This document shows positions 4,922 through 22,284 of a DNA stretch of 64,000 nt, one piece after another. Each line of letters starts with the position of its first letter. Position 1 is the stretch's first letter. Under the pieces are notes generated by a model that saw only the letters and a list, made by a program, of their open reading frames with translations, did no database searches and was not told the DNA's origin. The stretch comes from an uncultured Verrucomicrobiae bacterium (GTDB taxonomy: Bacteria; Verrucomicrobiota; Verrucomicrobiia; Limisphaerales; UBA11358): the NCBI GenBank assembly GCA_963711945.1, contig CAVQGB010000001.1, positions 406,865 through 470,864 of the forward strand, read 5' to 3'. The position numbers and the translations under genes were made by a program.

Positions 4922-5836
4922 CTACTGAACGGAATTGGTTTGCGCGCCGGCGGCGGCGAGCATCGCGGCAGCGAGTTCTTGCGGCGTCCATTGGTTGCCG
5001 TCCAGTTGCCTGAAAATGCGCCCTTGCGGGTCAAGCACGACCGTCCGCAAATTGTGCGAAATGCTGTCTCCCTGGCGCGCGACGACCAGATCGAGACGCA
5101 ATGCAATGTCGGCGAGCACATTGGTTGACACGGCGGCAAACGACCAGCGGTTGGTGTCATCGCCGCGATAAACCCCGGCATAATTTGACAGCACCGCCGG
5201 CGTGTCAAACGTGGGGTCGAAGGAAATGGAAAGGAACTGCCAGTTCGCCGGCGCGCGGGTGTCGGCCATGAGAATTTTCCGCGCCTGCTCAAAATAATTG
5301 TTCATGCGCGGGCAGAAATCCGGCAAAGGACAGCGCGTGTAAAAGAAGGTGAACGCCAGAACCCGACCCTGATAATCCGAAAAACGGATGTGTTTTCCAT
5401 CCTCCACCGTCAACGGATAATCCGGCAGGCGGTCGCCCGGTTTGAGTTCGGAAATCATCAGGCCGTGAGTCATGCCCATCGGCTTGGACATGCTGTTGGT
5501 CATCGTTTCAGCGGAATGTCCGATGCGACGGATGTTTTCGATCCATTCGACATCATCGCCCACGACCAGCGTAAAGGTGATGTCGTCTTTGGGCGAAATG
5601 CCGCTCAATTCATTCGTGTTTCGCACCGAAAAATCCATCGTCATTTCCATCATGTAACCGGGAATGGCTTGATGATGAATCGTCACCCGCGTCAAGCCCG
5701 GCTCGATTTTCTCAACCACTCCTTGTGCGGAATAGGATTTCGTTCTTTGATCGCCGCCCGTTGGCGCGGCAGAAATGGAACGGGCAAGGAGCAGGGCGCA
5801 GAACAGTGCCAGGCATTTTGGGGCAAATAATTTCAT
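4922..5836 (-). CDS. secreted CusF-like copper-binding domain fused to an SCO1/SenC thioredoxin-fold copper chaperone
   Basis: Signal peptide MKLFAPKCLALFCALLLARSISA. CusF-like block VTIHHQAIPGYMMEMTMDFSV. SCO1 block FTFFYTRCPLPDFCP (CxxxC) ..ISFDP..D. Confidence 0.8.
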   Translation of the reverse strand: MKLFAPKCLALFCALLLARSISAAPTGGDQRTKSYSAQGVVEKIEPGLTRVTIHHQAIPGYMMEMTMDFSVRNTNELSGISPKDDITFTLVVGDDVEWIENIRRIGHSAETMTNSMSKPMGMTHGLMISELKPGDRLPDYPLTVEDGKHIRFSDYQGRVLAFTFFYTRCPLPDFCPRMNNYFEQARKILMADTRAPANWQFLSISFDPTFDTPAVLSNYAGVYRGDDTNRWSFAAVSTNVLADIALRLDLVVARQGDSISHNLRTVVLDPQGRIFRQLDGNQWTPQELAAAMLAAAGAQTNSVQ

Positions 5837-8875: not shown

Positions 8876-10630
8876 TCACCGGTTCACAAATAATTCCCAC
8901 TGGCCGGCTCGCATGGCCCGGCGCAACAGATAGTCGCCATGAGTCTGCTGGAATTCTTCCACCGCGCCGACGGGGCCGACAATCCAGACGCGCTGCCCGC
9001 TTTCAAGCAATTGCACCAGCGCATTGTCATCGGGCAACAGCAGGTTGCCAAGCCGTTCACGGTTGCCCGGAAATTCAAACGGAACCTGCGTCAAATCCAT
9101 GCCGCCGAAATATGGACGGTTCGTCGCGGAAATGGCATTGCCGGCATAAAACGGCAGGCCCTGCGGCAGTTTTCCCCAGCAAATGAGGGCGTCGCCGGGC
9201 CGGTAATTTGCGCGCAGCGCGACGCCGAGCGGCTTGAGCGTCTGATTGCCCCTGAAACTCGTCTCGAACGCCGGCACTTCGGCCATGACGATCATGAAGC
9301 TGAACAGCGCCAGCCCGGCGGTAAGGCCCGCGCACTGCGCCGTTTTGAGATTTTTCGGCAGCCACAAAAGCAAAATCACGGCAACCGCCGCGGCGGACAT
9401 CTGGCAAACCATCCATGCCGACAGCGCATTGTGAAAGGCAACGACCAGCGCCACTGGCAGAACTGCCAGAAGGAACATCGGGCTGACAAGACAAAGCCGC
9501 CACGGAAGAATTATTGCCGCCGGTTTGAGTTCGCGTTCTTCGCCAAAGAATCGCCAGGCGAGAAGAACCGAAAGCGCCGGGAAAATCGGCAGAATGTAAG
9601 CCGGCAATTTCGCATGGGAGAGGCTGAACAGGACGAATGTGAAAATCGCCAAGACATTCAGCAGCAGCCAGCCGTCCCTGGAAATTGCCGATTGCCGATT
9701 GCCGATTGCCGGCTGAATTTCAGACTCTGGACTGTGGACTGTGGACTGTGGAGCGGGTGAACGCCACAGCCAGCCGAGCAGCCACGTCCATGGCAAAAGG
9801 CCGGCGGCGACAATTCCAAAAAAGTAAAACGGGCCGCCAGAACGGTTTTTGATGGTCGTGCCAAGCAGATGACCGGCAGCCTGACCGAGAACCATGTAGT
9901 GCGCCGATTCCGGCATGCGCTGGAAAACCGCCAGAAACCACGGCGCGGCCAGAACCAGGAACAGCGCAAAGCCGGCAATAAAACCGGCAAGCAGCATTTT
10001 CCCGGATGCTTCACTGCGGCGGAACAGTGCCAGGGTGACGAATGCAACCATCGGAATGGCCAGCGCAATCGGCCCCTTGGTTAGAAATCCCATCGCGATG
10101 GCTGTCCATCCGGCGAAGTGCCACGCAAAGAATTTCCCCGCCTTCCGCTGTCCGCTTTCCGCCTTTGCTTCCAGCCAGCTTCGCCAGAAAAAATACACCG
10201 CCCACGCGACGAATTGCGTCAGGAGAATGTCCGGCGTCAGCATCCGCGCCATGGCGAAGTAAAGCAGGTTGGTTTGCAGCAGAATCGCGCTCCAGAAACC
10301 GGCCCGCCGTCCACCCAGCGAGCAGCCCAGCAAAAATGCCGCCCACACGCCGCTGATGCCGGCGAGCGCGACCGGCAGCCGCGCGGCCCATTCGTTCTGG
10401 CCGAAAACCTTCATTGACGCCGCCACGAGCCAGCAGGTCATCGGCGGCTTGTCCAAATGCGGGAGATACCAGAGATGCGGCACGAGCCAGTTGCCGGTCT
10501 CGATCATTTCGCGCGCGATCTCTGAATAACGCCCCTCGTCCGGTTCGTTCAGTGAACGGCTGCCGAGCAGGAGGAAAATGGTGAACAGCGTCAGTGCCGG
10601 CAGCCCCAATTTTTGCAGGATGTTTTTCAT
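8876..10630 (-). CDS. ArnT-like family 39 glycosyltransferase (polyprenyl-phosphate sugar transferase), polytopic membrane protein
   Basis: N-terminal motif NEPDEGRYSEIAREM..WLVPHL...KPP, more than 10 TM segments and a periplasmic C-terminal domain. Confidence 0.8.
   Translation of the reverse strand: MKNILQKLGLPALTLFTIFLLLGSRSLNEPDEGRYSEIAREMIETGNWLVPHLWYLPHLDKPPMTCWLVAASMKVFGQNEWAARLPVALAGISGVWAAFLLGCSLGGRRAGFWSAILLQTNLLYFAMARMLTPDILLTQFVAWAVYFFWRSWLEAKAESGQRKAGKFFAWHFAGWTAIAMGFLTKGPIALAIPMVAFVTLALFRRSEASGKMLLAGFIAGFALFLVLAAPWFLAVFQRMPESAHYMVLGQAAGHLLGTTIKNRSGGPFYFFGIVAAGLLPWTWLLGWLWRSPAPQSTVHSPESEIQPAIGNRQSAISRDGWLLLNVLAIFTFVLFSLSHAKLPAYILPIFPALSVLLAWRFFGEERELKPAAIILPWRLCLVSPMFLLAVLPVALVVAFHNALSAWMVCQMSAAAVAVILLLWLPKNLKTAQCAGLTAGLALFSFMIVMAEVPAFETSFRGNQTLKPLGVALRANYRPGDALICWGKLPQGLPFYAGNAISATNRPYFGGMDLTQVPFEFPGNRERLGNLLLPDDNALVQLLESGQRVWIVGPVGAVEEFQQTHGDYLLRRAMRAGQWELFVNR
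9684..9749. repeat. two adjacent heptamer arrays, (ATTGCCG)x4 and (GGACTGT)x3, inside the GT39 gene
   Basis: Positions 9684-9711 and 9729-9749. They are translated as ..STVHSPESEIQPAIGNRQSAIS.. Confidence 0.95.
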
Positions 10631-11712
10631 CTCGCCGCGGCGGCATTTTCCGGACGCAAAATCACCTCGCGGCCCTTCCAGTTCTTCTCGCCGATGTGAT
10701 TCATCATCCCCAGATGGTAGCGCCAGGACATGCCGTAAAACGGATTGTGAGTCGGCCAGAACGAAATGATGTCCACGCCGATCTCCTTGCCCATCTCAAT
10801 CGCGCGCCGGATGGTTTTCGGATGGTCGTTCCAGTTGAACAGCAGATATTTCCATTCCAGAACCGGCATTTTCCACCCGCGCGCGTCGCGATAAGCCACC
10901 ATTTGCTTCATCGCATCGAACGCCTTCTCAAAACTGCCGCGCATCATGTATTTCTCACACATGGCGTCGCTGATGCCGTGGACGGAAAACTGAATATCGC
11001 TCAAATACAGCGCCGCTTCGCGTTTGGCATCGGTGTTCAACAGGACGCCGTTCGTGGAAACCCGGATGTAGGCGTCGGGATTTTTCGCGCGCAGCAGCGG
11101 CAATTCCTGGCAGATCGTCGGCGACAGAAACGGTTCGCCGAGGTTCAGGTAAAAAATCCGTTTCATGCCGAGCCGGGCGGCGAGGTCGGCCATCTGGCTC
11201 AATTCGGCGAGCGGCATCGTCTTTTTGGTGCGGATGTTCGCCGCGCCTTCGCGGGCGCAGCCAATGCAGTCCACGTTGCAAATCACGGTGTTCTCCAGCA
11301 GCATTCCGCGATACGGCAGACGCGGCTTGGGCGGCGCTTCATTCCTTTTCATCCGGCGCAAATCGCCGCAGCGCGAGCAGGTCGAAATCGGCATTTTCCC
11401 CTTTGCCAGGTCGTCGCGGAATTGTTGCGCAACCGGGCCTAAGAAGATTTCCTCGAACGAATTCTTCCGCAAATCGCCGAGATGCCCGCTGCCGTCATAA
11501 TCCTGGCAATTGCAGGAGACGGTCAAATCAGAATTGATGGTGATGTTGTATTCCGATTCACCTGAAAGCGCGACGCAATCGTATTTCCTCCCGGTGATCT
11601 TGGCGCGCAGTTCAAGCCAGCGCGACATTGTCCAGCGGAGGACATCGCTGACGCGCCAGTTAAAGCGCGTCTTCGGATTCTTGATTGCCCGCGTTGTCGG
11701 CGAAATGGCCAT
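10627..11712 (-). CDS. radical SAM enzyme with an N-terminal SPASM/twitch-like Cys cluster
   Basis: The CNVDCIGC (CX3CX2C) core is preceded by ITINSDLTVSCNCQDYDGSGHLGDLRKNSFEEIF..STCSRCGDL. The stop overlaps the GT39 start (ATGA). Confidence 0.8.
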   Translation of the reverse strand: MAISPTTRAIKNPKTRFNWRVSDVLRWTMSRWLELRAKITGRKYDCVALSGESEYNITINSDLTVSCNCQDYDGSGHLGDLRKNSFEEIFLGPVAQQFRDDLAKGKMPISTCSRCGDLRRMKRNEAPPKPRLPYRGMLLENTVICNVDCIGCAREGAANIRTKKTMPLAELSQMADLAARLGMKRIFYLNLGEPFLSPTICQELPLLRAKNPDAYIRVSTNGVLLNTDAKREAALYLSDIQFSVHGISDAMCEKYMMRGSFEKAFDAMKQMVAYRDARGWKMPVLEWKYLLFNWNDHPKTIRRAIEMGKEIGVDIISFWPTHNPFYGMSWRYHLGMMNHIGEKNWKGREVILRPENAAAAR

Positions 11713-11870
11713 GGGAAAAGGATGGCCGCGCGCGGCTAATTCAGCAAGCGAACTTGGTTGGATACGTTTGCCGGCAAAGTGTGGATGCCGTCGCCAGCCG
11801 CATCATCTTCGACGGACCGCGTTCGGCAGGGCGCTGGCAAGAGACTCCCCGCCGTCCTTGCCGGAGTTAA

Positions 11871-12185
11871 TCTGCCGGTTGAAAGACCGAATCTGCCAAC
11901 CGCCGGATGACGATTGGCACCCGCCAGATTCGATCTGCCAGTTGAAAAATGCCTTCTGTCAGTCGGAAAATGACCTCTGCCGATTGGAAAATGGCTTCTG
12001 TCACTCGCCGGATGACAATGTGCTGTTGATTTATGACCATCGTCGGTCGCCAAATGGCATCTGCCGGTTGGAAAATGACATCTGTCGGTCGCCAAATGGC
12101 CTCGTGCTGTTGATTTTTGACCATCGGCGGTCGGTTTATGGCCTCTGTCAGTCGCCTTTTCCCCGCTGTCGGTTGAAGGATGCCT
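11871..12185. repeat. strictly 21-bp phased degenerate tandem array (~15 units; consensus near TCTGYCGGTYGGAAAATGRCN)
   Basis: Units start at 11871, 11892, 11913 ... 12165. Higher-order similarity links units 7-9 with units 11-13. The array lies in a 600-bp divergent intergenic region. Confidence 0.9.
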
Positions 12186-12312
12186 GTATTCCAAGGGTTT
12201 ACGCCGATGCGACTACAAAAATAGCCTTAAATTATCAATGCGAAGCCCGCCGCCGTGCATAAAATATGAAGTTGCGGAGTGTGGTAATGAATCCGCGTTC
12301 CGCAATTCAAAA

Positions 12313-13050
12313 ATGAACACGAAACAACAAAACAAGCTAGCCATGTATCTGGCGGTGAAAAGCGTGCTCGATGCCAACAATTCCGTCTGGCAATCGTTGC
12401 AGGCCTTCGCGGATGGATACACGGACTTCACCAGCCATGTCACCCGGATCCAGACCTTGGAACTTTCCCAAGTGACGGATTCCACCGGCATCGCGCAGGA
12501 CAAAAAACAGTCCAAGGCGGCGATGGCAACGGCAGCGCAGCAAATCAGTGCGGCGGTTCACGCCTACGCTGTCAAAACCAAGAACAACACGCTGGCCAAC
12601 GAAACGGATTTTACCGTTTCCGACCTGACCGGCGAACGGGACGCGGAGGCCATCAAGGATTGCCAGAACATCCGTGACCTTGCCGCCAACAACCTCGCCA
12701 GTCTCGGCAATTACGGCGTGACGGCGGCCAGGCTGACAGCATTGCAGGCGGCCATTAACGCCTTCAAAGACATCGCCACCAAACCGCGCGACAACATCGT
12801 CACCGGCAAAACGGTGACACAGGAGTTGAGCGACGAGTTTGACACGGTGGATGTAACGCTGTCGGAAATTCTCGACGGCCTGGTTGTGCAATTCCAGGAC
12901 ACCAACGCCAAATTCGTGAGCGACTACCAGAACGCGCGAATCATCGTTGACGCCTCGGCCAGCCACGCCAGCCCGAACCAGCCGACACCCACGCCGCCAA
13001 CGACAACCACAAAACCGGCAGCACCCACGGGATTGACAACCAAGCCGTAA
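12313..13050 (+). CDS. hypothetical alpha-helical protein with a Pro/Thr-rich tail
   Basis: ATG at 12313 (MNTKQQNKLAMYLAVKSVLDANNSVW..). C-terminus PNQPTPTPPTTTTKPAAPTG. A hairpin terminator follows. Confidence 0.6.
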   Translation: MNTKQQNKLAMYLAVKSVLDANNSVWQSLQAFADGYTDFTSHVTRIQTLELSQVTDSTGIAQDKKQSKAAMATAAQQISAAVHAYAVKTKNNTLANETDFTVSDLTGERDAEAIKDCQNIRDLAANNLASLGNYGVTAARLTALQAAINAFKDIATKPRDNIVTGKTVTQELSDEFDTVDVTLSEILDGLVVQFQDTNAKFVSDYQNARIIVDASASHASPNQPTPTPPTTTTKPAAPTGLTTKP

Positions 13051-13064
13051 AAATCAGGAAACGC

Positions 13065-13100
13065 AAAGCGGCCTTCGGAAATGGAGGCCGCTTTTGATTT
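13065..13100. terminator. hairpin between convergent genes (rho-independent-like on the plus strand)
   Basis: aaagcggcc-ttcggaaatgga-ggccgcttt followed by tgatttt. Confidence 0.6.
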
Positions 13101-13391
13101 TCAGGGTTTGGAGCTACGCTTATAGCGACTGATAAACAGCGCTCCCAGCAAATTTGGGACAAAAAAAAGGAAAATAAATGGGAGCAAAAGATATGGAATT
13201 GCGCTTAAAATATAAGCTGGCGAGAGCGATGAGGGAAGGCCTTCCATGAATAGGTCAAATAGCGCATTGATGATCACGCTACTTATCAGACAGCGAATGG
13301 TCAAAGCGGCCGAGCCGCATTTTGAAAACCACCCGATTAAAATTCCCGTTGTTGCTGAAACAAGAATAACGATGAAAAAAAAGAAGAGCAT
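13101..13391 (-). CDS. small 3-TM membrane protein, candidate immunity protein
   Basis: MLFFFFIVILVSATTGILIGW.. starts 12 nt after the stop of the upstream toxin-like gene. The region is AT-rich. Confidence 0.5.
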   Translation of the reverse strand: MLFFFFIVILVSATTGILIGWFSKCGSAALTIRCLISSVIINALFDLFMEGLPSSLSPAYILSAIPYLLLPFIFLFFVPNLLGALFISRYKRSSKP

Positions 13392-13402
13392 TGAACTGCG
13401 TG

Positions 13403-14209
13403 TCAAAATTTGAATTTATTGTCTATTTTGATGTCTTGATCCCCGCCCCACAACAAGATGGGATTTGTGATTCTCAATAGAGTCTCATGTTGTTGAAAGT
13501 CAAAAATAGTTTGCCCATGGACTCGTGCTACATAAGAAGGGTAACTACCGTGCGAACCATATAAAGTTCCCTCTCTTTTGCAGAAATCGAGAGTAAAATC
13601 AAAGTAGTAAGATATATCAAATCCTGAAGGCAATACGGCAGAATGTGCGAGGCCTTTCATAAAGCCACCAACTACCGGCTTGTAAAGCATAGAGGCATCT
13701 TGTTCAAAATAGCCAAATCCGGTTACATCAAAACCCGCTACACTGGTTGCTCCAATATATTTGATAACGCTGACAACTTGACCTTTATCATTTACCGTGA
13801 GGCTATGGATCGTCTTTGCCCCTTGCTCATAGTCTGGTGGTCGTATAATGGTTGTCACTTCAAGTTGGACATTTTCAAGCCCAAGGTAATCTACTTGGGA
13901 CACCGGGTTATTTACGACGAAATCGTAGCTCAAAGTCCGCGCATCTCTGATATGTTTGGAAGCAACTTCTGGATTTTGACCGGGCAAAAGAGACGTTTCT
14001 CCGATCGGATCACGAATAACCCATCGGGCGCGTGGTTGTAGCGCTGACCCGGCAACCTGCGGCGTTGCGTTTTGAAGTGCCTGAAAGCCTGGCTCAACAA
14101 TCGGGTCGCGCGATAGCCAGCGACCTGTTGAAGGGCTGTAATAGGCAGAGGCTATTTGCGCGAACGAAAGCGCAAATAGAACAACTAGGATTGTTTTTGC
14201 AGTTTTCAT
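13403..14209 (-). CDS. secreted protein: signal peptide + terminal RHS-core motifs + unknown C-terminal (toxin-like) domain
   Basis: MKTAKTILVVLFALSFAQIASA / YYSPSTGRWLSRDPI / RWVIRDPIGE / YDFVVNNPVSQVDYLGL, followed by ~165 aa with no recognisable motif. Confidence 0.65.
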   Translation of the reverse strand: MKTAKTILVVLFALSFAQIASAYYSPSTGRWLSRDPIVEPGFQALQNATPQVAGSALQPRARWVIRDPIGETSLLPGQNPEVASKHIRDARTLSYDFVVNNPVSQVDYLGLENVQLEVTTIIRPPDYEQGAKTIHSLTVNDKGQVVSVIKYIGATSVAGFDVTGFGYFEQDASMLYKPVVGGFMKGLAHSAVLPSGFDISYYFDFTLDFCKREGTLYGSHGSYPSYVARVHGQTIFDFQQHETLLRITNPILLWGGDQDIKIDNKFKF

Positions 14210-14264
14210 GGTGTCTTGAATGGATTTCGTGGTTGAATTTGTTGCATCGGGTTCGGGTCGGCTT

Positions 14265-14396
14265 TTATCTGAACCACCTATACACTTGGTAATGATCCAG
14301 GATTTTTGATGCGATTATCACGATTAAAATTGTAATAAGAGTGCCTCCAATGAACATGGCCAAAGGATGCGGATATTTCGGTTTTTGATCTGCCAT
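14265..14396 (-). CDS. 43-aa single-TM ORF (below the ORF-track cutoff), candidate immunity protein
   Basis: MADQKPKYPHPLAMFIGGTLITILIVIIASKILDHYQVYRWFR. The ATG is at 14396, 22 nt after the stop of the upstream toxin-like gene. Confidence 0.35.
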   Translation of the reverse strand: MADQKPKYPHPLAMFIGGTLITILIVIIASKILDHYQVYRWFR

Positions 14397-14418
14397 AATG
14401 CTTGATTGGGGCTATATC

Positions 14419-15114
14419 TTAAGCCCCAGGAGGAGGCGAGCTATTGCACATTATTACATAGTTGCGTTTACAATTGCATTTATCATCAAACCATACGTGC
14501 ATATAAACCCTTCCGCCCTGCGGGCAGTGATATACAATAATGGCTATATTAGCTATGGTAAGAGCTGCTGCCCCCGGCGTTCGGCCAAAAGATTCCATAC
14601 CAGGATGATCAGCAAGATAGTTACATTCTTTCTGCCACATGCCCCAGTCAACACCCGCGATTGCGATGCCAACGATTCCCTGTAATACATAAAACCCATA
14701 AACCGGGGTTGGAACATCCATTCGACCATCCAAGTCAAAGCGATCCATCGGATCATTATGGCAAAATTGATAAACTATGAAATCGGTGTTTTGCTTAACT
14801 GGAGGCCGAAAGGCGGTCTGTTCGTCGGAAACAACCCCAAATATTCTACTGCGACTACCTCCACGAAAACTTTTTGAAATAACAATCGGAGTTGAAGTGT
14901 CTTTGGTGTCCCGAATTAACCAACGACCCGACGATTGCAAAACTGAATTGGCATTTCCCGATGGCAGGGATGCCGTTTGCAATGTTTGAAAGCCCAGCTC
15001 CCCATTTGGATCGCGTGACAACCAATGGCCAGTTGAAGGGCAATAATAGGCAGAAGCAATTTGTGCCGTCAGTAGCGCAACCAAAACAAAGATGATTGAT
15101 TTTGCAGTTTTCAT
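14419..15114 (-). CDS. paralogous secreted protein: signal peptide + RHS-core-tip motifs + a different C-terminal domain
   Basis: MKTAKSIIFVLVALLTAQIASA / YYCPSTGHWLSRDP / GRWLIRD / QFCHNDPMDRFDLDG, followed by an unrelated Cys-rich C-terminus. The ATG at 15114 overlaps the upstream stop codon. Confidence 0.65.
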   Translation of the reverse strand: MKTAKSIIFVLVALLTAQIASAYYCPSTGHWLSRDPNGELGFQTLQTASLPSGNANSVLQSSGRWLIRDTKDTSTPIVISKSFRGGSRSRIFGVVSDEQTAFRPPVKQNTDFIVYQFCHNDPMDRFDLDGRMDVPTPVYGFYVLQGIVGIAIAGVDWGMWQKECNYLADHPGMESFGRTPGAAALTIANIAIIVYHCPQGGRVYMHVWFDDKCNCKRNYVIMCNSSPPPGA

Positions 15115-16214
15115 GGCGTTCGGAATGGATTTCGAGGCATTTGTGGAAGTGGATTCGGGTCTGCGGGAACGTTGAGGTTCACCGGCCGTTGCTGTTGAGT
15201 CAAAATGACCGGACGAGCAAGCCTCTGACGCGCTTGGGCAAGCAACACCTGGTTGCCTCTCCATGCCGGCTCATATCGGTAAGCCAGATTGAAACTTGCG
15301 AGCGCGTCGCCGTGAAGTCCATGTTCGGTCTGGCACATGCCGCGAAGGGAAAGGAAAACGGACAATTCTTCCGCTGGCGTTAGCGATTTGAGATAGCCTT
15401 CTTCCTTGATTTCCTCATCGCTGATTGGAAACGGCCACTGCCGATAAACACTGTCGTCATAATGGCTCACTCCCTTGCTGGTGGCGTCCACGTCGAACTT
15501 TTCCGTCGGACTGTCCCAGCGCACAAAAAGATGCGCCCTCGTCGAGACCAGCTTCAGCGGATAGCCCAGCCGCCGTCCCAAGGCGATGTAAAGCACCGGC
15601 ATTGAACTACATGTGCCCAAATGCCGGCTGCCAATCAAACCGTGAATTAAAATGTCATTGGAGTCGGCAAAGAAATGGTCGTCCGGTGGCGGCGTATCCG
15701 ATGGTGACTCGATCAATTCCGGGTTGTAACGGACGTTGTAATCCTCATACAACACCACTCCCATCATCGCCATCTTGTAAAAGTTCGTTGAGTTGTAGAA
15801 ATAGGCCGGGTCGTCTGAATAATGATGAAAATTCCGATCAATCTCCGACTTGATGTGTTGCGCCCAAGAATCAAGCGTTCCCAAAGATTCGTTCACTTTC
15901 ATATTTTCCGCGCCGGGCAGGTCTTCGGCACAAAGCAGATTCATCCGCGCAATGTCCACTTTTTCCAAGTCGGCTGGCGCTAAGTCCAGAAGTTGTGCGA
16001 GCGTCTCCGGTTGCTTGAATGATGGAGATTGAACGGCAGGAACCGAGTTCGGCGTTTGAGGTCTTTGACGGAAATGAACCCAAACGAGAGCGCTGGTGGC
16101 AACGAGCACAACGCCGACAATTGAGAGGATTCGGGACAACTTCTTCCCATTCGCAAGGCGTGTTTCCCGATGCCTTGTTTCTTCGCGCAGCCGTTGGCGT
16201 GATTCACGGCTCAT
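15111..16214 (-). CDS. membrane-anchored transglutaminase-like/TPR (SirB1-like) protein
   Basis: One TM segment (ILSIVGVVLVATSALVWV), GTCSSMPVLYIALGRRLGYP, and a C-terminal TPR-like LSLRGMCQTEHGLHGDALASFNLAYRYEP. Confidence 0.5.
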   Translation of the reverse strand: MSRESRQRLREETRHRETRLANGKKLSRILSIVGVVLVATSALVWVHFRQRPQTPNSVPAVQSPSFKQPETLAQLLDLAPADLEKVDIARMNLLCAEDLPGAENMKVNESLGTLDSWAQHIKSEIDRNFHHYSDDPAYFYNSTNFYKMAMMGVVLYEDYNVRYNPELIESPSDTPPPDDHFFADSNDILIHGLIGSRHLGTCSSMPVLYIALGRRLGYPLKLVSTRAHLFVRWDSPTEKFDVDATSKGVSHYDDSVYRQWPFPISDEEIKEEGYLKSLTPAEELSVFLSLRGMCQTEHGLHGDALASFNLAYRYEPAWRGNQVLLAQARQRLARPVILTQQQRPVNLNVPADPNPLPQMPRNPFRTP

Positions 16215-16313
16215 GCGCCTGACTTTACCAGACGCGCTTATATTGTCAAGCGCCAGAACAATTTTGCGCAAAAACAAAAAAAAGTCGGAATTTACCAATC
16301 CCGGCGTCACCAT

Positions 16314-17441
16314 TTAATTCAGCAAGCGATACCAGTTGTCGCGCTGATGCGGCTCGTAGCCGAGGTCGGTAATCAGCCGCTTCATGTCGGCCACGGTCAT
16401 GCGGAAGGTGGTGCCGGCCTGGCTCACGACGTTCTCCTCGATCATGATGCTGCCGAGGTCGTTCGCGCCGAATTTCAACGCGATCTGGCCGATTTCCAGA
16501 CCTTGCGTGACCCACGAACTCTGGATGTTGGTGAAATTGTCGAGGTAAATCCGGCCCAGTGCCTGCGTCCGCAAATACTCGTGCGCGCCAACGGTCGGGG
16601 CCTTCAATTTCGTGTGCTCGGCCTGGAACGTCCAGCAGATGAACGCGGTGAAATTTCCCATTTCCGAATTTCCGTTTTCTGCTTTCCGCTTTAATGAAAT
16701 GTCCTGCTGCGCCCGCAGCCGCTCCAGATGTTCGATGCGGTCTTCAACCGCCTCCACGTGGCCGAACATCATCGTCGCGCTCGAAAACAGGCCAAGCCGG
16801 TGCGCCACATCCATCACTTCCAGCCAGTCATCGCTCATCGCCTTGAGCGGCGACACTTTCTGGCGCACGCGGTCCACCAGAATTTCTCCGCCGCCGCCGG
16901 GAATCGAACCGAGACCGGCGGACTTGAAATCGCCGATAATTTTCTCCAGCGGCTCGTTGAACACTTCGCGGAAATGGATGAACTCGCTGGGGCTGAAACC
17001 GTGGATGTTGACCTGCGGCCACTTGTTTTTGACGTGAGAGAGCAGATCAAGATACCACTGCTTTGTCAGTTTGGGGTGATGCCCGCCCTGCATCAAGAGT
17101 TGCGTGCCGCCGAGCGCGACTGTCTCCTCGATTTTCTTGTCCATTTCGTCCAGCGTAATGACGTAGGCGTCGTCGTCCTTTTCCACGCGATAAAACGCGC
17201 AGAACTTGCAATAGACATTGCAGACGTTCGTGTAATTCACGTTGCGGTCAACGATGTAGGTGACGATATCGTTGCCGCGTCCACCGAAATCCTTCGCCTT
17301 GGCAAGCTGGCGGCGGCGGTCGGCGAGCGCGCCAAGGTCCTCCAGCGGCAAATGATAAAGCCGCAGCGCCTCGCTCTGGTTGATGCGCTGGCCGTCCCAC
17401 ACTTTCTGTAGCAACTCGTCCAATGACGCGTCGTAAATCAC
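16314..17441 (-). CDS. mqnC: cyclic dehypoxanthinyl futalosine synthase (radical SAM, futalosine menaquinone pathway)
   Basis: Motifs YIVDRNVNYTNVCNVYCKFCAFY, GGTQLLMQGGHHP, FTAFICWTFQ and LGSIMIEENVVSQAG. Confidence 0.8.
   Translation of the reverse strand: MIYDASLDELLQKVWDGQRINQSEALRLYHLPLEDLGALADRRRQLAKAKDFGGRGNDIVTYIVDRNVNYTNVCNVYCKFCAFYRVEKDDDAYVITLDEMDKKIEETVALGGTQLLMQGGHHPKLTKQWYLDLLSHVKNKWPQVNIHGFSPSEFIHFREVFNEPLEKIIGDFKSAGLGSIPGGGGEILVDRVRQKVSPLKAMSDDWLEVMDVAHRLGLFSSATMMFGHVEAVEDRIEHLERLRAQQDISLKRKAENGNSEMGNFTAFICWTFQAEHTKLKAPTVGAHEYLRTQALGRIYLDNFTNIQSSWVTQGLEIGQIALKFGANDLGSIMIEENVVSQAGTTFRMTVADMKRLITDLGYEPHQRDNWYRLLN
16652..16694. repeat. degenerate heptamer array (NNTTTCC)x6 inside mqnC
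   Basis: The units are aatttcc catttcc gaatttcc gttttct gctttcc gctttaa. They encode SLKRKAENGNSEM, between the conserved LRAQQD and G.FTAF blocks. Confidence 0.7.
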
Positions 17442-17783: not shown

Positions 17784-18001
17784 TTTGATCCCGGTTTCGC
17801 CGGCGCTACTGCAACGGCTGTGACGTTGGTTTGAGGAGCGTTCAGCCGCTTGATCTGCTGCTGCTCCATAAATCTCACTTCGCGGTGCAGATGAAGCAGC
17901 GAGCGGGTTTCCGCCGTGATGAGAATCATCATGATCGCCAGCAGCGCGACGAACAGCAGGGTTGCCATACCGCTTTGGGAGTTGTCTTGTTGGATTTTCA
18001 T
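17780..18001 (-). CDS. 73-aa minor-pseudopilin-like protein (no Glu+5)
   Basis: MKIQQDNSQSGMATLLFVALLAIMMILI.. The ATG at 18001 overlaps the upstream stop (ATGA). Confidence 0.45.
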   Translation of the reverse strand: MKIQQDNSQSGMATLLFVALLAIMMILITAETRSLLHLHREVRFMEQQQIKRLNAPQTNVTAVAVAPAKPGSK

Positions 18002-18564
18002 GGCTTGGTTTGCGCGGCCTCGAAGGTGAACAACAGCGGCAACCGCATTTCCGTGCGGCGCGGCGCGAGTTCCAGTTCCCAGCGCCATGCAGCCACGCCG
18101 CCGCGCGGGTCGGCCTTCATTTCGGACGTTTTCACTTTGTCCAATAGCGGCGTGGAAACCTTTGTGGACGAACTCTGCCTACGCATTTCTCCATTTTCAA
18201 AACAGTAAAATATGTTTCCTCCGGCAATTGGAATCCGCACCGTTTGGCCGGCCGCACCGGTTTCGACGGAAATTATCCCGGTCGCGCCGCGCACGTCCGC
18301 GCGCCACCGTTCGCCGGCGCGCAGGGCGGAGCCGATGTCATCGGTGGCGCAAATCATCGCCCTGGAATGGTTCAAGCAGCAATAAAACGCCGCCATGCCG
18401 GCGCCGGTGACGATGGCGAACACGACAATATACACCAGACATTCAATCAGCAGAATACCGGACCGACATCGTGCGCCCCGTGGAATAAGTCGGATCATAT
18501 GCTGCTGCGTTTTGGAACGAGCTATTCCACGGGGCACGTTTGAAATGGCGGAGGGCAGTTTCAT
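17998..18564 (-). CDS. pseudopilin (prepilin-type N-terminus)
   Basis: The prepilin-type segment is RSG/ILLIECLVYIVVFAIV, with Glu at +5. Confidence 0.65.
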   Translation of the reverse strand: MKLPSAISNVPRGIARSKTQQHMIRLIPRGARCRSGILLIECLVYIVVFAIVTGAGMAAFYCCLNHSRAMICATDDIGSALRAGERWRADVRGATGIISVETGAAGQTVRIPIAGGNIFYCFENGEMRRQSSSTKVSTPLLDKVKTSEMKADPRGGVAAWRWELELAPRRTEMRLPLLFTFEAAQTKP

Positions 18565-19001
18565 TTGAGCGTGGTTTCGCGGACGACCGGGCCGACACCG
18601 CTTTTTTTATCGGCGGACCATTCAAGGCGCAGGTGATTGCCCGTTTTAGTCAGTTGAAAATGCCCCGGCGGCAGTTTGGCGGCGGCGTTGGCACGAACGG
18701 TGTAAGCCTGTAAACCATCCGGGAGATTCTTCGCAACGCCAGCGGCGAGAATTTCCATTTCGCCGTCCACGATCTCATTGGCGACGCTGCGATAGTATTC
18801 GTTTTTGAGACCCCGCTGTTCGTGCGCAAAGGAATAGCCCAGCGGCAACACGGCCATCGAGAGAATCGCCGTGGCGACGACCAGGTCCGCCATCAGAAAA
18901 CCGCGCTGGAGTTCAAGCTTCAGCTTGTTCTTCCGGCGCAGGCTGAAGACCGAACTCCAACCGCACATGCTCCGGTTCTTGGGATGCAGTCTCATTTTCA
19001 T
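18561..19001 (-). CDS. pseudopilin (prepilin-type N-terminus, Asp at +5)
   Basis: The prepilin-type segment is QRG/FLMADLVVATAILSMAVL. Confidence 0.6.
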   Translation of the reverse strand: MKMRLHPKNRSMCGWSSVFSLRRKNKLKLELQRGFLMADLVVATAILSMAVLPLGYSFAHEQRGLKNEYYRSVANEIVDGEMEILAAGVAKNLPDGLQAYTVRANAAAKLPPGHFQLTKTGNHLRLEWSADKKSGVGPVVRETTLK

Positions 19002-20164
19002 GTCGCGTCCAACATTCCTTTCAAAATCATCACCAGCATTCCAAACATGCCGACGGCGATGAGCGCCACGACCAGTCCGTTGAAAATCACCAGACCGCTG
19101 GTGAGGGCGTGGGTCGCGGTTTCCTCCTGCTGGAACGCCCTGGCGTCGAGCTCCTCATGCCAGCCGCGCAGCGCATTCAAGAATCCGCCGCGCGCGTGGA
19201 CGGCATTCGTGAGCCGCCAGTGAAATTCGCCGGTGTCGTCAAACGTGCGGATGGCATCATTCAGTTTCACGCCATTTTCGAGCGCGGCGATAACGCGCCG
19301 GGCGCGGCGGCGGCAGATTTCGTTGGCGGTGGCGTCGCCCGCGAGCCGGACGGCTTCGGCCTCCGGCACACCACCGTCGAGCAGCACGGCAAGCATGGCG
19401 GAGAACGTTCGGAGCAATTTCTTTTGCTTCCACGACACGCGCCAGGCGATCCAGTCCACGACGGGAACGCTGCGGAATTGGAATTTGCGGACGAAGCCCG
19501 GCCCGCCGATGTAAATCAACACCACGGACAGCAGCGCCAGGAAGACCACCGCTTCAAAAGTCACGAGCCAGAAAGTATTTTGAAAGACAAACATCGCCGG
19601 CGGCCAGACCCGGAAATTATACCCCGCAGCGATTTCCTTGAACTTGGGAATGACGAACGTGGATTCCAGGCTGATGATAAAACAGGCGACCGGTGCAAAG
19701 ATCAGCAGGATGGCCACCATGTAGTGCATCGTGGTGCGAACGGTGTCCGGCGCGATGCGCAAGACTTCGCGGCAGGCGGGCAGGACGCGTTTCAGGTCGC
19801 CAAGTTTTTCACCGGCACGGATAATGGCGTTGACCTGCGGCGGCAGAAAGCTTGGGACTTTTTCAAGCGCCTCGCCGAGTCCGGCCCCATTTTCGATGTG
19901 CGCGGCGACCATGAAATAACCGACGCCCACCGCGCGGTCGCGGTTTTCTGCGGCGGAAAGAATGGCTTGTTCCACCGGCTGTCCTCGCTGGAGGACGGTT
20001 TCCAGCAAATCCAGAAAAAACAGCGCGCGGTCGCGGCGGCGCATGGGCAGTGAGAGCAGATAATGCATCAGCACCGAAAACGCGCCGCCCGGCAGCAGTA
20101 TCAAAACTGCATACCAAAACAAGACGAACACAAACTGTAACAAATCGGTCATAGAGTTCAGCAC
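18998..20164 (-). CDS. gspF: GspF/PilC-family platform protein, paralog 2 (two T2SSF domains)
   Basis: Two repeats of the T2SSF cytoplasmic domain are separated by TM segments (..LETVLQRGQPVEQAI.. and ..AMLAVLLDGGVPEAEAV..). Confidence 0.8.
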   Translation of the reverse strand: MLNSMTDLLQFVFVLFWYAVLILLPGGAFSVLMHYLLSLPMRRRDRALFFLDLLETVLQRGQPVEQAILSAAENRDRAVGVGYFMVAAHIENGAGLGEALEKVPSFLPPQVNAIIRAGEKLGDLKRVLPACREVLRIAPDTVRTTMHYMVAILLIFAPVACFIISLESTFVIPKFKEIAAGYNFRVWPPAMFVFQNTFWLVTFEAVVFLALLSVVLIYIGGPGFVRKFQFRSVPVVDWIAWRVSWKQKKLLRTFSAMLAVLLDGGVPEAEAVRLAGDATANEICRRRARRVIAALENGVKLNDAIRTFDDTGEFHWRLTNAVHARGGFLNALRGWHEELDARAFQQEETATHALTSGLVIFNGLVVALIAVGMFGMLVMILKGMLDAT

Positions 20165-20176
20165 ATGAGATTGCGA

Positions 20177-21190
20177 TCAGCCGCCGCTCATGCTCGTTGT
20201 CATGCGAACCATCGGTAAAAACATGCTGATGACCAAGAATGCCTGCGATAAAACAACCGCGCCAAGAAACAATGAAATAATCGGCAGCACCGAAAAAAGC
20301 GCGATCTCGGTGCGGTAGATGGCGCGCGAATGGTAGATTTCCGCCGCACGATTGAACCCGGCCGTTAAATCTTCGCCGGCACTGGCCACGACCCAGACGA
20401 ACATCGGCGGAATTGTCCGGTTGCCGGCGGCAATTTCGGAAAATTTCACGGTTCCAGCGGCGAGTCTATTCTGCCACTCCTTTAAATCGGCGGCGGAGGC
20501 GCTGTTTTCAAGTTGCGCCACGAGTCCGATGGCTTCCGGCAGGGGAACGCCATTTTTCAGCAGCAGCGTCAATGCCGACGCGATGCGCGAGACGTTGGCT
20601 TCCTTGAACGCCGGCAGCCGCCAGAGGTATTTCCCGCGCAGCTCCGGCAGAAAAATGACGGACACCATGATAAAAAACAGGACGCCGAGTATTACCGGGA
20701 AAATCCAGATGGTTTTCAACGTCGAAAACGCAAAGAGTGTGGCTGCGGGAAGCGATATGTTCGTGCCGCTAAACACATCTTTGAAGGACGGTCCGATGAC
20801 GCAAGTCCAGGCGAATGCCAAAACCGTCGAGATGACAACCGCGACAAACATCACGATGAGCGGATAGGTCATCATGCTTTTAAGCCGCGTCCAGACATCG
20901 TTCTGCCGCTGGAAATAATCCGCGAGCATCGTCAGCGCACCGGGCAGGTCGCCGCTTTTGACGCCGACGAGAATCATGCGCTTGTAAAGCTCCGGCAACT
21001 GGCGCGGTTTCAGGGCGTCGGCCATCGGCACGCCGTTGGCCAGGTCGGCTTCGAGCGTCTGCAATTCGTCGCGCAGGTTTCCGCGGCGCATTTCCTGGCA
21101 GAGCCGGCGCAGCCCGCCTTCGAGCGGGATGCCATCGCGCAACATCGCCGCAAGCTGCTGGTTGAAGAAGGCAAATTCGTCGTATTTCAT
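20177..21190 (-). CDS. gspF: GspF/PilC-family platform protein, paralog 1 (two T2SSF domains)
   Basis: MKYDEFAFFNQQLAAMLRDGIPLEGGL.. and ..LTLLLKNGVPLPEAI.. Confidence 0.8.
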   Translation of the reverse strand: MKYDEFAFFNQQLAAMLRDGIPLEGGLRRLCQEMRRGNLRDELQTLEADLANGVPMADALKPRQLPELYKRMILVGVKSGDLPGALTMLADYFQRQNDVWTRLKSMMTYPLIVMFVAVVISTVLAFAWTCVIGPSFKDVFSGTNISLPAATLFAFSTLKTIWIFPVILGVLFFIMVSVIFLPELRGKYLWRLPAFKEANVSRIASALTLLLKNGVPLPEAIGLVAQLENSASAADLKEWQNRLAAGTVKFSEIAAGNRTIPPMFVWVVASAGEDLTAGFNRAAEIYHSRAIYRTEIALFSVLPIISLFLGAVVLSQAFLVISMFLPMVRMTTSMSGG

Positions 21191-22284
21191 AAGCCAAAAA
21201 TCCGTTTGAACTCCGCTTCGTTCGTCACGCCACGATTCACGAGCGAACGCGCCGAAGCTTCGAGGTTTTGCACGGGCGCCAACGCGTTCAGTTCGCGCCG
21301 CCGGATGTTGTCGCGCATTTTATCGTCCACGCGCAGCCATTCGGTCAGCGGTGCGCGGCCTTGATAGCCGGTGCGCAAACAGCTTTCGCAACCCGCGCCG
21401 CCGCACGCGGAACAGACCTTGCGCATGAGCCTCTGGTTCAAAACCAGTTCTACCGAGCTGGCGACGGCGGACTGGTCGGCACACATCGCGAGCAGCCGCT
21501 CGAAGACGCCCTTGCACGAGCCGGCGTGCAGCGTCGAAATGACGAGATGCCCCGTCAGCCCGGCGCGGACCGCGAGTTGCGCCGTCGCCTCGTCGCGGAT
21601 CTCGCCGAGGATCAGCACCTGCGGGTCCAACCGGAGCAGATGCCGCGCGGCGCGGGCGAAATCCAGGCCGATGGCTTCGTTGATTTCCGTCTGCATCGTG
21701 CCGGGGACAATCTGCTCGACCGGGTCTTCAACCGTGATGATCTGGCGTCCGCCGCAATCGGCCAGGTGCCGCAGGCAGGCGTAAATGGTCGTGGTCTTGC
21801 CGCTGCCCGCCGGGCCGGTGAGCAGGAGCAGGCCGGTGGTTTGGCGGAGAAAATGTTCCAGTTCGGCGCAGGCGGAATCCGGCAGGGACAATTCGTGCAG
21901 CGTCTTCGCCGACGCCGAATTGAAAAGGCGCAGCACGATCTTTTCGCCGGTCACGGTCGGGTAAGTGGCGACGCGGATGTCGTTTTGGATTCCGAGTTCG
22001 TCGCGCGAAATGCGGCCGTCCTGCGGCAGCGATTCCTGATACGTTTTCAGCCGCGCCAGAAATTTGATCCGGCCAAAGACGCGCTCTGCCACGTCGGCGG
22101 CAAGCTCGGGGCCGGGCGTGATGATGCCATCCAGCCGGAAGGCGACCTCGGAGGTGTGGCCGCGCATCTGCAAATGGATGTCGCTGGCGCCGGCGCACTC
22201 GGCCCGGCGGACGAGTTGCTCCAGGATTTTCGGAGCGGAAGATTCCTCATCGGCGCCCACGGTTTTTGTTTTCTCTGAAATCAT
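21187..22284 (-). CDS. gspE: GspE/PilB-family secretion ATPase (short form)
   Basis: Walker A LLLLTGPAGSGKTTT, Asp box, Walker B VLILGEIRD, His box LTGHLVISTLH, and a tetra-Cys motif CSACGGAGCESC. Confidence 0.9.
   Translation of the reverse strand: MISEKTKTVGADEESSAPKILEQLVRRAECAGASDIHLQMRGHTSEVAFRLDGIITPGPELAADVAERVFGRIKFLARLKTYQESLPQDGRISRDELGIQNDIRVATYPTVTGEKIVLRLFNSASAKTLHELSLPDSACAELEHFLRQTTGLLLLTGPAGSGKTTTIYACLRHLADCGGRQIITVEDPVEQIVPGTMQTEINEAIGLDFARAARHLLRLDPQVLILGEIRDEATAQLAVRAGLTGHLVISTLHAGSCKGVFERLLAMCADQSAVASSVELVLNQRLMRKVCSACGGAGCESCLRTGYQGRAPLTEWLRVDDKMRDNIRRRELNALAPVQNLEASARSLVNRGVTNEAEFKRIFGL

Follow-up and report, generated by a model that had tools for sequence, protein, structure and literature searches.

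RHS toxins are understood as cages, in which a shell protects, carries and releases a toxic C-terminus and the tip acts as a latch. RHS and Tc proteins cleave themselves after a DPxGL motif, and the cleavage products stay with the core. Orphan rhs-CT/rhsI modules lie downstream of main rhs genes in Salmonella, E. coli and Dickeya, and in the Maf system the accessory gene directly upstream of the toxin gene, MafA, encodes a lipoprotein. The survey of Zhang, Aravind et al. (2012; PMC3482391) described Sec or 'T2SS class' (type II secretion system, T2SS) RHS toxins and N-terminal inactive transglutaminase domains. Here, we analysed a stretch of 64,000 nucleotides (the window; contig CAVQGB010000001.1, positions 406,865 to 470,864) from an uncultured Verrucomicrobiae bacterium and found two adjacent genes, A and B, in which a signal peptide (SP) is joined directly to the tip of an RHS core. 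We consider it likely that they belong to a polymorphic toxin-immunity islet whose trafficking module is new and consists of a Sec signal and a bare RHS tip, with a transglutaminase-like (TG-like) accessory protein. The initial annotation of this DNA had called shell-less, Sec-exported RHS tips an uncharacterised delivery mode; in agreement with this, no description of an SP joined directly to a shell-less RHS tip, or of a Transglut_core2 partner, was found in PMC3482391 or in full-text literature searches, the coverage of which was partial.

13403..14209, minus strand: gene A, toxin-like, 268 aa, with an SP (residues 1-22), an extended RHS tip (residues 23-111) that ends in NNPVSQVDYLGL, and a beta-rich C-terminus of 157 aa.
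14419..15114, minus strand: gene B, toxin-like, 231 aa, with an SP (residues 1-22), an extended RHS tip (residues 23 to ~130) that ends in HNDPMDRFDLDGR, and a C-terminus of ~100 aa.

Sec-type RHS toxins (PMC3482391), for example WapA-type proteins and those of the Verrucomicrobial loci L065, L067, L071, L075 and L076, share with these SP-tip proteins an N-terminal Sec signal, the identical tip YYxPSTGRWLSRDP...NLYxFVxNxPxxxxDxLGL before a hypervariable C-terminus, an immunity-like gene directly downstream, and the Tle1-like and DUF3238-like types of C-terminus. In contrast to them, the SP-tip proteins lack the YD shell of ~1,500-2,000 aa, their SP being fused to the last repeat; the tip is partly duplicated, with a second RWxxRD, in the group-1 members, to which A and B belong; and a Transglut_core2 partner gene is linked to them that was not seen beside full-length RHS genes (0/59 loci). 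Orphan rhs-CT/rhsI modules are similar in being short genes that combine the core end, a C-terminal toxin and an immunity gene, in forming tandem arrays and in using the core as a recombination handle, whereas the SP-tip genes have their own start codon and a conserved SP, can occur without a main rhs gene, and have a first cassette that is translationally coupled to an accessory gene. The MafB/MafI/MafA system of Neisseria (Jamet et al., 2015; PMC4287609) resembles the SP-tip cassettes in its Sec signal, short N-terminal module, polymorphic toxin, immunity gene, arrays of alternative cassettes and accessory gene just ahead of the toxin gene, and the outer-membrane route is unclear in both. 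However, the N-terminal module of MafB, DUF1020, is unrelated to the RHS tip and was absent from the Pfam matches of A, B and 120 homologues, the accessory lipoprotein is not TG-like, and the system belongs to another phylum.

The initial annotation had proposed two adjacent genes of SP plus RHS tip without a shell, and both were found as proposed. The N-termini of A and B read MKTAK(T/S)I...AQIASA, with two basic residues, a 14-residue hydrophobic core and Ala at -3 and -1, and the AlphaFold model of A contains a confident helix at residues 4-21. B was counted from its MKTAKS start; its frame is open to 15264, and the extra part corresponds to the 3' end of the upstream gene in another frame. 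After the predicted cut, both proteins continue with YY(S/C)PSTG(R/H)WLSRDP and then a second RW(V/L)IRD: A runs from MKTAKTILVVLFALSFAQIASA into YYSPSTGRWLSRDP...RWVIRDP...NNPVSQVDYLGL and then ENVQ, and the tip motifs of B are YYCPSTGHWLSRDP and HNDPMDRFDLDGR. Only the 22 residues of the SP stand ahead of the tip, without a YD shell, and A and B retain the last ~40-90 residues of the RHS cage. Beyond the end of the tip the two proteins are unrelated. Their 5' ends form a direct repeat of 174 nt with 74% identity (14059-14232 and 14964-15137) that starts upstream of both ATGs, which bears out the earlier remark that the first ~200 nt align.

Both A and B contain a terminal YD repeat of the form (R)YYxPxxGRWxSxDP and an NPxxxxDPxG[LWFM] boundary, although the Pro of DPxG is often substituted across the SP-tip family. 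The RHS-core model TIGR03696 matched residues 23-41 of A with 28.7 bits (E = 1.4e-6) and of B with 24.2 bits (E = 3.6e-5); only positions 37-55 of its 76 were matched because an insertion splits the motif. A Pfam search gave no match in A or B, including to PF05593 (RHS_repeat) and PF25023 (TEN_YD-shell). We then built a profile of the N-terminal module from an alignment of 30 family members (A3) and searched it against all PDB sequences. The matches below E = 0.05 were exclusively the C-terminal extremes of RHS/Tc proteins, namely TccC2 (624-664), YenC2 (650-690), TccC3 and RHS2 (E = 0.003-0.04); the profile also matched the tip of a teneurin-like protein (E = 0.12-0.13) among chance-level matches to protocadherin-15 (E = 0.1-0.6). 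Since its two halves were each placed on one and the same segment of TccC2 and of YenC2, we conclude that the module is a canonical tip, part of which is duplicated internally. Residues A20, A22, G29, R34-D35, R66-D67, D107 and G110 are invariant in the family, and we take D67 and D107 to be the two Asp of the RHS/Tc autoprotease. The RHS-core identity that had been claimed for the N-terminal motifs is thus upheld by a sub-cutoff model match (E ~1e-6) and by PDB matches at the RHS/Tc autoproteolytic end. Genome contigs also contain a second subfamily, in which a plain tip of 41 residues stands straight after the SP (EAQA, then FYNPSTGRWLSRDPIEEQGGxNLYGFVGNDPxxxxDxLGL), and full-length RHS proteins of the same phylum with a Sec signal (1,800-2,200 aa) end in the same tip sequence.

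With A as a query, we found at least 167 homologues that share the module, nearly all of 150-300 aa and with the match confined to the first ~110 residues; the paralog survey suggested earlier thus succeeded in the databases and found no SP-tip copy in the 64-kb window besides A and B. The homologues come from soil and peat metagenomes and from metagenome-assembled genomes (MAGs) of Verrucomicrobiota, are 'hypothetical' where named, and occur in arrays of up to six cassettes. In ~110 of 120 inspected homologues the module ends in NxYxFVxNxPxxxxDxLGL and is followed by an unrelated C-terminus, and RHS repeats were present in one of 120 (P0049, an RHS fragment). Mean column identity was 44% in the module (A3) and 11% over the whole protein, and the C-termini could not be aligned. 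A conserved N-terminal trafficking region before unrelated C-termini, by which polymorphic toxins are recognised (Zhang, Aravind et al., 2012), is therefore found across the family as well as in A and B, as the initial annotation had proposed for the pair.

The recognised C-terminal types are glucosaminidase, Aspzincin M35, DUF6973, HExxH peptidases, Tle1/DUF2235-like lipase, phospholipase A2 (PLA2; with CCxxHDxCY in P0062, P0070 and P0077) and DUF3238-like; no nuclease or deaminase was among them, and many C-termini are Cys-rich. This set would fit toxins that fold and act outside the cytoplasm. With the C-terminus of A alone, a word-indexed homologue search returned only the query itself. 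An exhaustive HMMER search gave 69 cluster representatives, in all of which the domain is C-terminal; its carriers are short SP-tip proteins, RHS fragments and proteins with only a signal peptide. A profile of 25 A-type sequences matched PDB entry 3c5p (BAS0735, structural genomics) with E = 1.7e-5, and PF11579 (DUF3238) weakly matched five of the 25 (best E = 0.006) and not A itself, so that the C-terminus of A appears remotely related to DUF3238/BAS0735. In locus L008 a canonical RHS protein carries the A-type domain, joined to it at the identical position, between LGL and EN (DPFGL followed by ENYSFNVITIIRPPD in L008; DYLGL followed by ENVQLEVTTIIRPPD in A). The C-terminus of B, which is Cys-rich with two hydrophobic stretches, has homologues in P0101 (79% identity) and P0048 (63%); neither a sequence relative in PDB nor a Pfam match was found for it.

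SP and tip sequences were closer within an array than between genomes (L012, 6001-7821; L004, 8001-9445; A and B in the window), and two L012 cassettes differ by one residue in their first 40. This suggests that the 5' module is under concerted evolution or gene conversion. A decay of A and B into pseudogenes was considered and ruled out by the intact open reading frames (ORFs) and SPs, the tip invariants, and partners that are conserved in many genomes.

Each of the two genes is followed by a small ORF.

13101..13391, minus strand: ORF of 96 aa with three transmembrane (TM) segments, or 101 aa if counted from the TTG at 13406, which overlaps the stop of A; candidate immunity protein for A.
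14265..14396, minus strand: ORF of 43 aa with one TM segment; candidate immunity protein for B.

Homologues of the 43-aa ORF were found directly after both B-type homologues, at 940-1071 of L009 (74% aa identity) and 8669-8821 of L004 (41%), and thus after three of three B-type C-termini, as would be expected of an immunity gene that co-varies with the C-terminus directly upstream. The L009 copy has equal length and frame and 24 nt changes, mostly conservative, and the L004 counterpart has 50 aa with seven additional N-terminal codons. The A-type C-terminus of L008 overlaps by 4 nt with the ORF that follows it, which encodes 108 aa with three TM segments and is similar in size and identical in topology to the 96-aa ORF. 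The conservation beside paralogs that the initial annotation had asked of the small ORFs was therefore found for the 43-aa ORF, whereas for the partner of A it was found only in position, with weak sequence similarity. In addition, 48 of 50 distinct cassettes have a non-cassette ORF within 200 nt downstream; one or more TM or signal segments are present in 39 of these 48 ORFs, and a lipobox-like motif in 17. This is the pattern that would be expected for immunity to envelope-acting toxins.

Upstream of B lies the TG-like gene, the 3' end of which is repeated in front of A; this partner was absent from the initial annotation, as were the exact limits of the islet and the tie to orphan positions downstream of full-length RHS genes.

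15111..16214, minus strand: TG-like gene with Transglut_core2 and TPR, 367 aa from M34; the frame is open to 16313, and the stop overlaps the start of B (ATGA).
14206..14262, minus strand: remnant of the TG-like 3' end, which reads ADPNPMQQIQPRNPFKTP before a stop and overlaps the ATG of A.

The TG-like protein matched PF13369 (Transglut_core2) with E = 4.8e-6 and 26.6 bits, above the gathering cutoff of 23.5, and carries the triad Cys235-His261-Asp276, in which C235 and H261 were invariant and D276 at least 90% conserved among 52 sequences; we therefore assign it to this family, whose function is stated as unknown (PMC10318531). The length of its homologues (> 1,400), 330-420 aa, makes M34 (16214) the probable start. 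A basic N-terminus is followed by one long TM helix, a papain/transglutaminase core and C-terminal TPR-like helical repeats, a layout that points to a protein anchored in the inner membrane whose core would face the periplasm. The AlphaFold2 model had a mean predicted local distance difference test score (pLDDT) of 80, and its best fold matches, menin and PNGase, were weak.

Counted as presence within the fetched DNA, among loci that are phylogenetically non-independent, a TG-like gene accompanied 19 of 25 SP-tip loci and none of 59 RHS-tip loci without a signal peptide (Fisher p = 5e-14). In group-1 loci it lies directly upstream with the ATGA overlap (L001, L003, L004, L006, L009, L010-L013 and L015), while in L016 and L017 it lies upstream at a distance and does not abut the cassette; in group-2 loci, those of the second subfamily, a homologue with 46% identity lies downstream of the array (L021, L026, L027, L033, L036 and L041). 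The full gene of the window ends in PADPNPLPQMPRNPFRTP and that of L004 in PADPNPLQQIQPRNPFQTP, each before the stop, and the remnant occupies the 57 nt upstream of the ATG of A in another frame. The duplicated unit is therefore the TG-like 3' end together with the signal peptide and the tip. Furthermore, P0203 (602 aa) and P0235 (455 aa) are in-frame fusions of a TG-like protein with an SP-tip toxin; the junction of P0203 lies in an alternative frame of the TG-like 3' end, and P0235 joins EELSVF to QVLQ. They may be products of frameshift, deletion or recombination, or assembly artefacts; if real, they would be single chains of TM segment, transglutaminase, tip and toxin.

An accessory of this kind has a working analogy in LapG, reportedly a transglutaminase-like cysteine protease of the periplasm by which the N-terminal retention module of the adhesin LapA is cut. 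Both cases combine a periplasmic Cys-His-Asp enzyme of transglutaminase fold with secreted substrates that have a conserved N-terminal module. LapG belongs, however, to BTLCP/DUF920 and not to PF13369, is soluble and controlled by calcium and cyclic di-GMP, and acts on an adhesin of the type I secretion system; we claim no sequence relationship. The 'inactive transglutaminase' domains of Sec-type RHS toxins (PMC3482391) also have a transglutaminase fold after a TM segment or SP and are tied to RHS-type toxins, whereas the TG-like protein is encoded by a separate gene, has a conserved catalytic triad and belongs to PF13369. An origin of the TG-like gene from such an N-terminus was not supported, as RHS repeats were found in none of its 120 best homologues and no transglutaminase domain in the N-termini of seven of seven full-length Verrucomicrobial RHS proteins.

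All of these genes lie between two copies of a short direct repeat.

11752..16314, no strand: inserted islet of 4,563 bp between the two copies of the 15-bp direct repeat.
16315..16329, no strand: left copy of the repeat, a perfect 15 bp TAATTCAGCAAGCGA, identical to the 3'-terminal 15 nt of the MqnC/CofH-like gene, with its stop codon.
11737..11751, no strand: right copy of the repeat, 25 nt upstream of the start of the SPASM gene.
16314..17441: MqnC/CofH-like radical-SAM gene (Pfam CofH_C and Radical_SAM).

The two copies are 100% identical at a spacing of 4578. We compared this site in 80 related Verrucomicrobiota MAGs whose mqnC-like gene has 81-90% identity. No TG-like or SP-tip gene was found downstream of the mqnC-like gene in any of the 80; in nine relatives the SPASM gene (10627..11712 in the window) starts 27-47 nt past the mqnC-like stop, and the empty site of L120 aligns base for base with both junctions of the window. 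The repeat copies and the empty sites thus show that the window carries an insertion of 4,563 bp, and we read the region as a horizontally inserted islet. Its GC content was 41-48% over 13000-15000 and 55-60% in the flanks, which confirms the AT-rich islet noticed before. The islet comprises an operon, a common hairpin terminator, a convergent gene of 245 aa, and tandem repeats of 21, 42 and 84 nt. Locus L010 shares this backbone (TG-like gene with 81% nt identity, terminator, convergent gene and periodic repeats), and its cassettes are unlike those of the window, the match being limited to their first 150-185 nt. Searches of ORFs, Pfam and PHROGs found no integrase, transposase or recombinase among the islet-encoded proteins, and a PHROGs search of four of them (A, B, TG-like and convergent) gave no match and hence no sign of phage origin.

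On the reading that we favour, the pre-toxins A and B would be exported by Sec, and signal peptidase would cut between ASA and YY, so that the last YD repeat of the RHS core would form the exact start of the mature protein. In full RHS/Tc proteins the site of self-cleavage is marked by two Asp and the DxxG[LR] boundary, which the tip would retain. The variable C-terminal domain would be the toxic part and act in the cell envelope, and the downstream membrane protein would neutralise it in the producer; the producer would itself need this protection, as its own periplasm lies on the path of the toxin. The common 5' module (TG-like 3' end, SP and tip) would serve as a homology handle for the duplication and exchange of cassettes, including exchange with full-length Sec-type RHS genes, and the TG-like protein would be a dedicated accessory that recognises the tip and then processes, holds or hands over the toxins. 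We advance only tentatively, and with some doubt, the narrower proposal that the bare tip is a portable N-terminal tag, read by a periplasmic Transglut_core2 enzyme that cleaves, cross-links or hands over envelope-acting toxins.

Several points weigh against this reading. The aspartyl autoprotease of known RHS proteins is located within the shell, which the tips of A and B do not have, and neither protein reached the curated TIGR03696 cutoff of 32.5 bits (28.7 for A and 24.2 for B). The nearest relative of the C-terminus of A, 3c5p/DUF3238, gives A no activity assignment, and the AlphaFold2 model of A from the family alignment had a pLDDT of 54, which made it unusable for a fold search, so neither C-terminus was given a fold or an activity. 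The 96-aa ORF has only 23% identity to the 108-aa ORF of L008 (E = 0.017, weak). Apart from the non-independence of the loci counted, six of the 25 SP-tip loci have no TG-like gene in the fetched DNA; four of the six are contigs of 2.7-6.4 kb, and the last cassette of L023 is near the end of the fetched DNA, whereas L031 (12 kb) is a genuine exception. The islet encodes no component for export across the outer membrane. Finally, we infer toxicity, immunity, secretion, the SP cut site, tip cleavage, the TG-like role and the outer-membrane route.

The full-length RHS genes near many arrays bear on an alternative that we regard as unlikely, namely that the cassettes are a silent or low-expressed reserve of orphan rhs-CT/immunity modules, with little activity of their own, that recombines through the YYxPSTGRWLSRDP tip into a full-length Sec-type RHS gene. 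L001 contains a full-length RHS gene (at least 1,485 aa), an immunity-like ORF, an RHS-core fragment and then two SP-tip cassettes with partner ORFs, and a TG-like gene and a third cassette close the locus; L013-15, L021, L023, L025, L027 and L036 have similar layouts. Arrays just downstream of RHS genes or fragments are what a reserve would predict, as are the RHS-core fragment that adjoins a cassette in L001, the tip shared with the full-length RHS genes of the phylum, and the C-terminal types common to both forms (Tle1-like in L065 and L027, A-type in L008). Since SP-tip arrays lie downstream of RHS genes, the cassettes occupy orphan positions and are probably exchangeable with the main RHS genes; such a position was found in L001, L013 and L025 and not in the window, where no RHS gene was found besides the tips of A and B. 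Classic orphans, however, have neither a start codon nor an export signal of their own, whereas A and B, like every cassette of the family (at least 167 proteins), have an ATG and a well-formed SP, with the cut site joined precisely to YY. In addition, the islet of the window has its own promoter-like site (see below) and no RHS gene, translation of its first cassette is coupled to that of the TG-like gene, and TG-like genes are linked to SP-tip loci and not to RHS-only loci. By their sequence, the SP-tip cassettes are predicted to be complete exportable genes, and they are also found alone (window, L004 and L006). The roles of reserve and toxin are, moreover, compatible with each other. Two further features of L001 were noted: the RHS-core fragment ORF (5176-5463), which ends in YRYYKSS, abuts the first SP-tip cassette and resembles a recombination scar, and the end of the locus (13680-15596) encodes a 500-aa protein with a faint TIR_2 match and a phage-type integrase.

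There is little chance, in our judgement, that the proteins are instead secreted hydrolases or effectors directed at eukaryotic prey or hosts, or at nutrients, with the tip as a sorting or processing tag and the downstream ORFs as unrelated membrane proteins. Lipases, PLA2, peptidases and glucosaminidase are also known among non-competitive secreted enzymes, and one enzyme gene with many substrates that bear a short common tag resembles sorting systems. Yet a different small ORF follows each type of C-terminus and co-varies with it, which is a hallmark of toxin-immunity pairs; the same C-termini occur on bona fide RHS polymorphic toxins with immunity-like neighbours; and the cassettes form arrays with hypervariable C-termini. 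That the tip docks in trans on a separately encoded RHS shell or other surface structure, with the short proteins as exchangeable warheads, is very improbable: the tip is the shell-closing strand in solved RHS/Tc structures (the position of the PDB matches) and arrays often lie next to full-length RHS genes, but in known RHS/Tc proteins the shell and the toxin that it encloses form a single chain, no RHS gene lies near the islet of the window or near several other loci, and no locus contained a tip-less shell gene.

The interpretation of A and B as toxins with a shell-less RHS tip, which the initial annotation had put forward, is supported as a whole. Of the RHS cage, only the latch is left in a large protein family of Verrucomicrobiota from soil and peat, where it stands behind a Sec signal and is linked to a conserved enzyme. 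If the proteins are active, delivery of RHS-type C-terminal toxins would need neither a shell nor a type VI secretion system or Tc vehicle, so-called orphan cassettes could be weapons themselves, and Transglut_core2, which is widespread without a known bacterial role, would gain a testable substrate. If the tip is indeed read as a tag, this would be a new Sec-dependent route of maturation or export for polymorphic toxins on a small integrating islet, and would give the PF13369 family its first functional context. These are environmental organisms, and their toxins are predicted to target other microbes. In addition, the empty and occupied sites with their 15-bp repeat offer a small, tractable example of toxin islet movement.

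The remaining features of the islet and of its upstream edge are as follows.

16222..16249, minus strand: promoter-like site, TTGACA-16-TAAAGT, with 10 of 12 matches and a TG extension, just upstream of the TG-like gene.
16286-16303: terminator-like hairpin, 3' of the mqnC-like gene.
13065..13094, no strand: hairpin with a 13-bp stem, between the operon and the convergent gene.
12313..13050, plus strand: convergent gene of 245 aa, with an ORF open from 12238, inside the islet.
11871..12133, no strand: block of 21-, 42- and 84-nt tandem repeats that lies within the islet, upstream of the convergent gene.

The promoter-like and terminator-like sites are consensus matches only, with a count in the region that is not above shuffles, and are hence weak evidence. 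The hairpin at 13065..13094, which is 86% conserved in L010, is probably a bidirectional terminator. The convergent gene has a homologue at the same position of L010 (3974-4678; 54% aa identity), and its helical protein had no match in Pfam, NCBIfam or PHROG. Both this gene and the tandem repeats accompany the TG-like/SP-tip operon in L010, where the periodic motifs are similar, and a role of the two in regulation, maintenance or mobility is possible.

Other inserts, of 0.25-3.7 kb and without TG-like or SP-tip genes, occupy the junction of the mqnC-like and SPASM genes in L089, L090, L092, L121, L139, L146, L148, L152 and L160; the mqnC-like 3' end may be an integration hot-spot. Beyond the islet, the radical-SAM/SPASM gene (10627-11712, minus strand) and a PMT_2-family glycosyltransferase gene (8876-10630, minus strand) are syntenic with the mqnC-like gene in relatives and have no relation to the toxin finding. 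A cluster similar to the T2SS or type IV pilus (17998-22284, minus strand), with genes for a T2SSE ATPase (21187-22284), two T2SSF proteins (20177-21190 and 18998-20164) and pseudopilin-like ORFs (17998-18564 and neighbours), lies ~1.7 kb upstream of the insertion site. It could provide an outer-membrane route for the toxins; as the cluster is part of the host backbone and not of the insertion, we did not accept it as evidence of belonging to the system. In L006, too, a T2SSE gene is found ~8 kb away from the cassettes.

Many MAGs that bear the title 'uncultured Bifidobacteriaceae/Bifidobacterium' combine SP-tip arrays of Verrucomicrobia type with genes that share 84-89% identity with Verrucomicrobial housekeeping genes (L021-L023, L025, L027, L030, L038, L042, L093, L119, L122, L134, L150, L161 and L166), and single MAGs titled Anaerolineae, Methylomirabilota and others showed the same pattern. 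These records appear to carry the wrong taxon label, as a result of mis-binning or mis-assignment.

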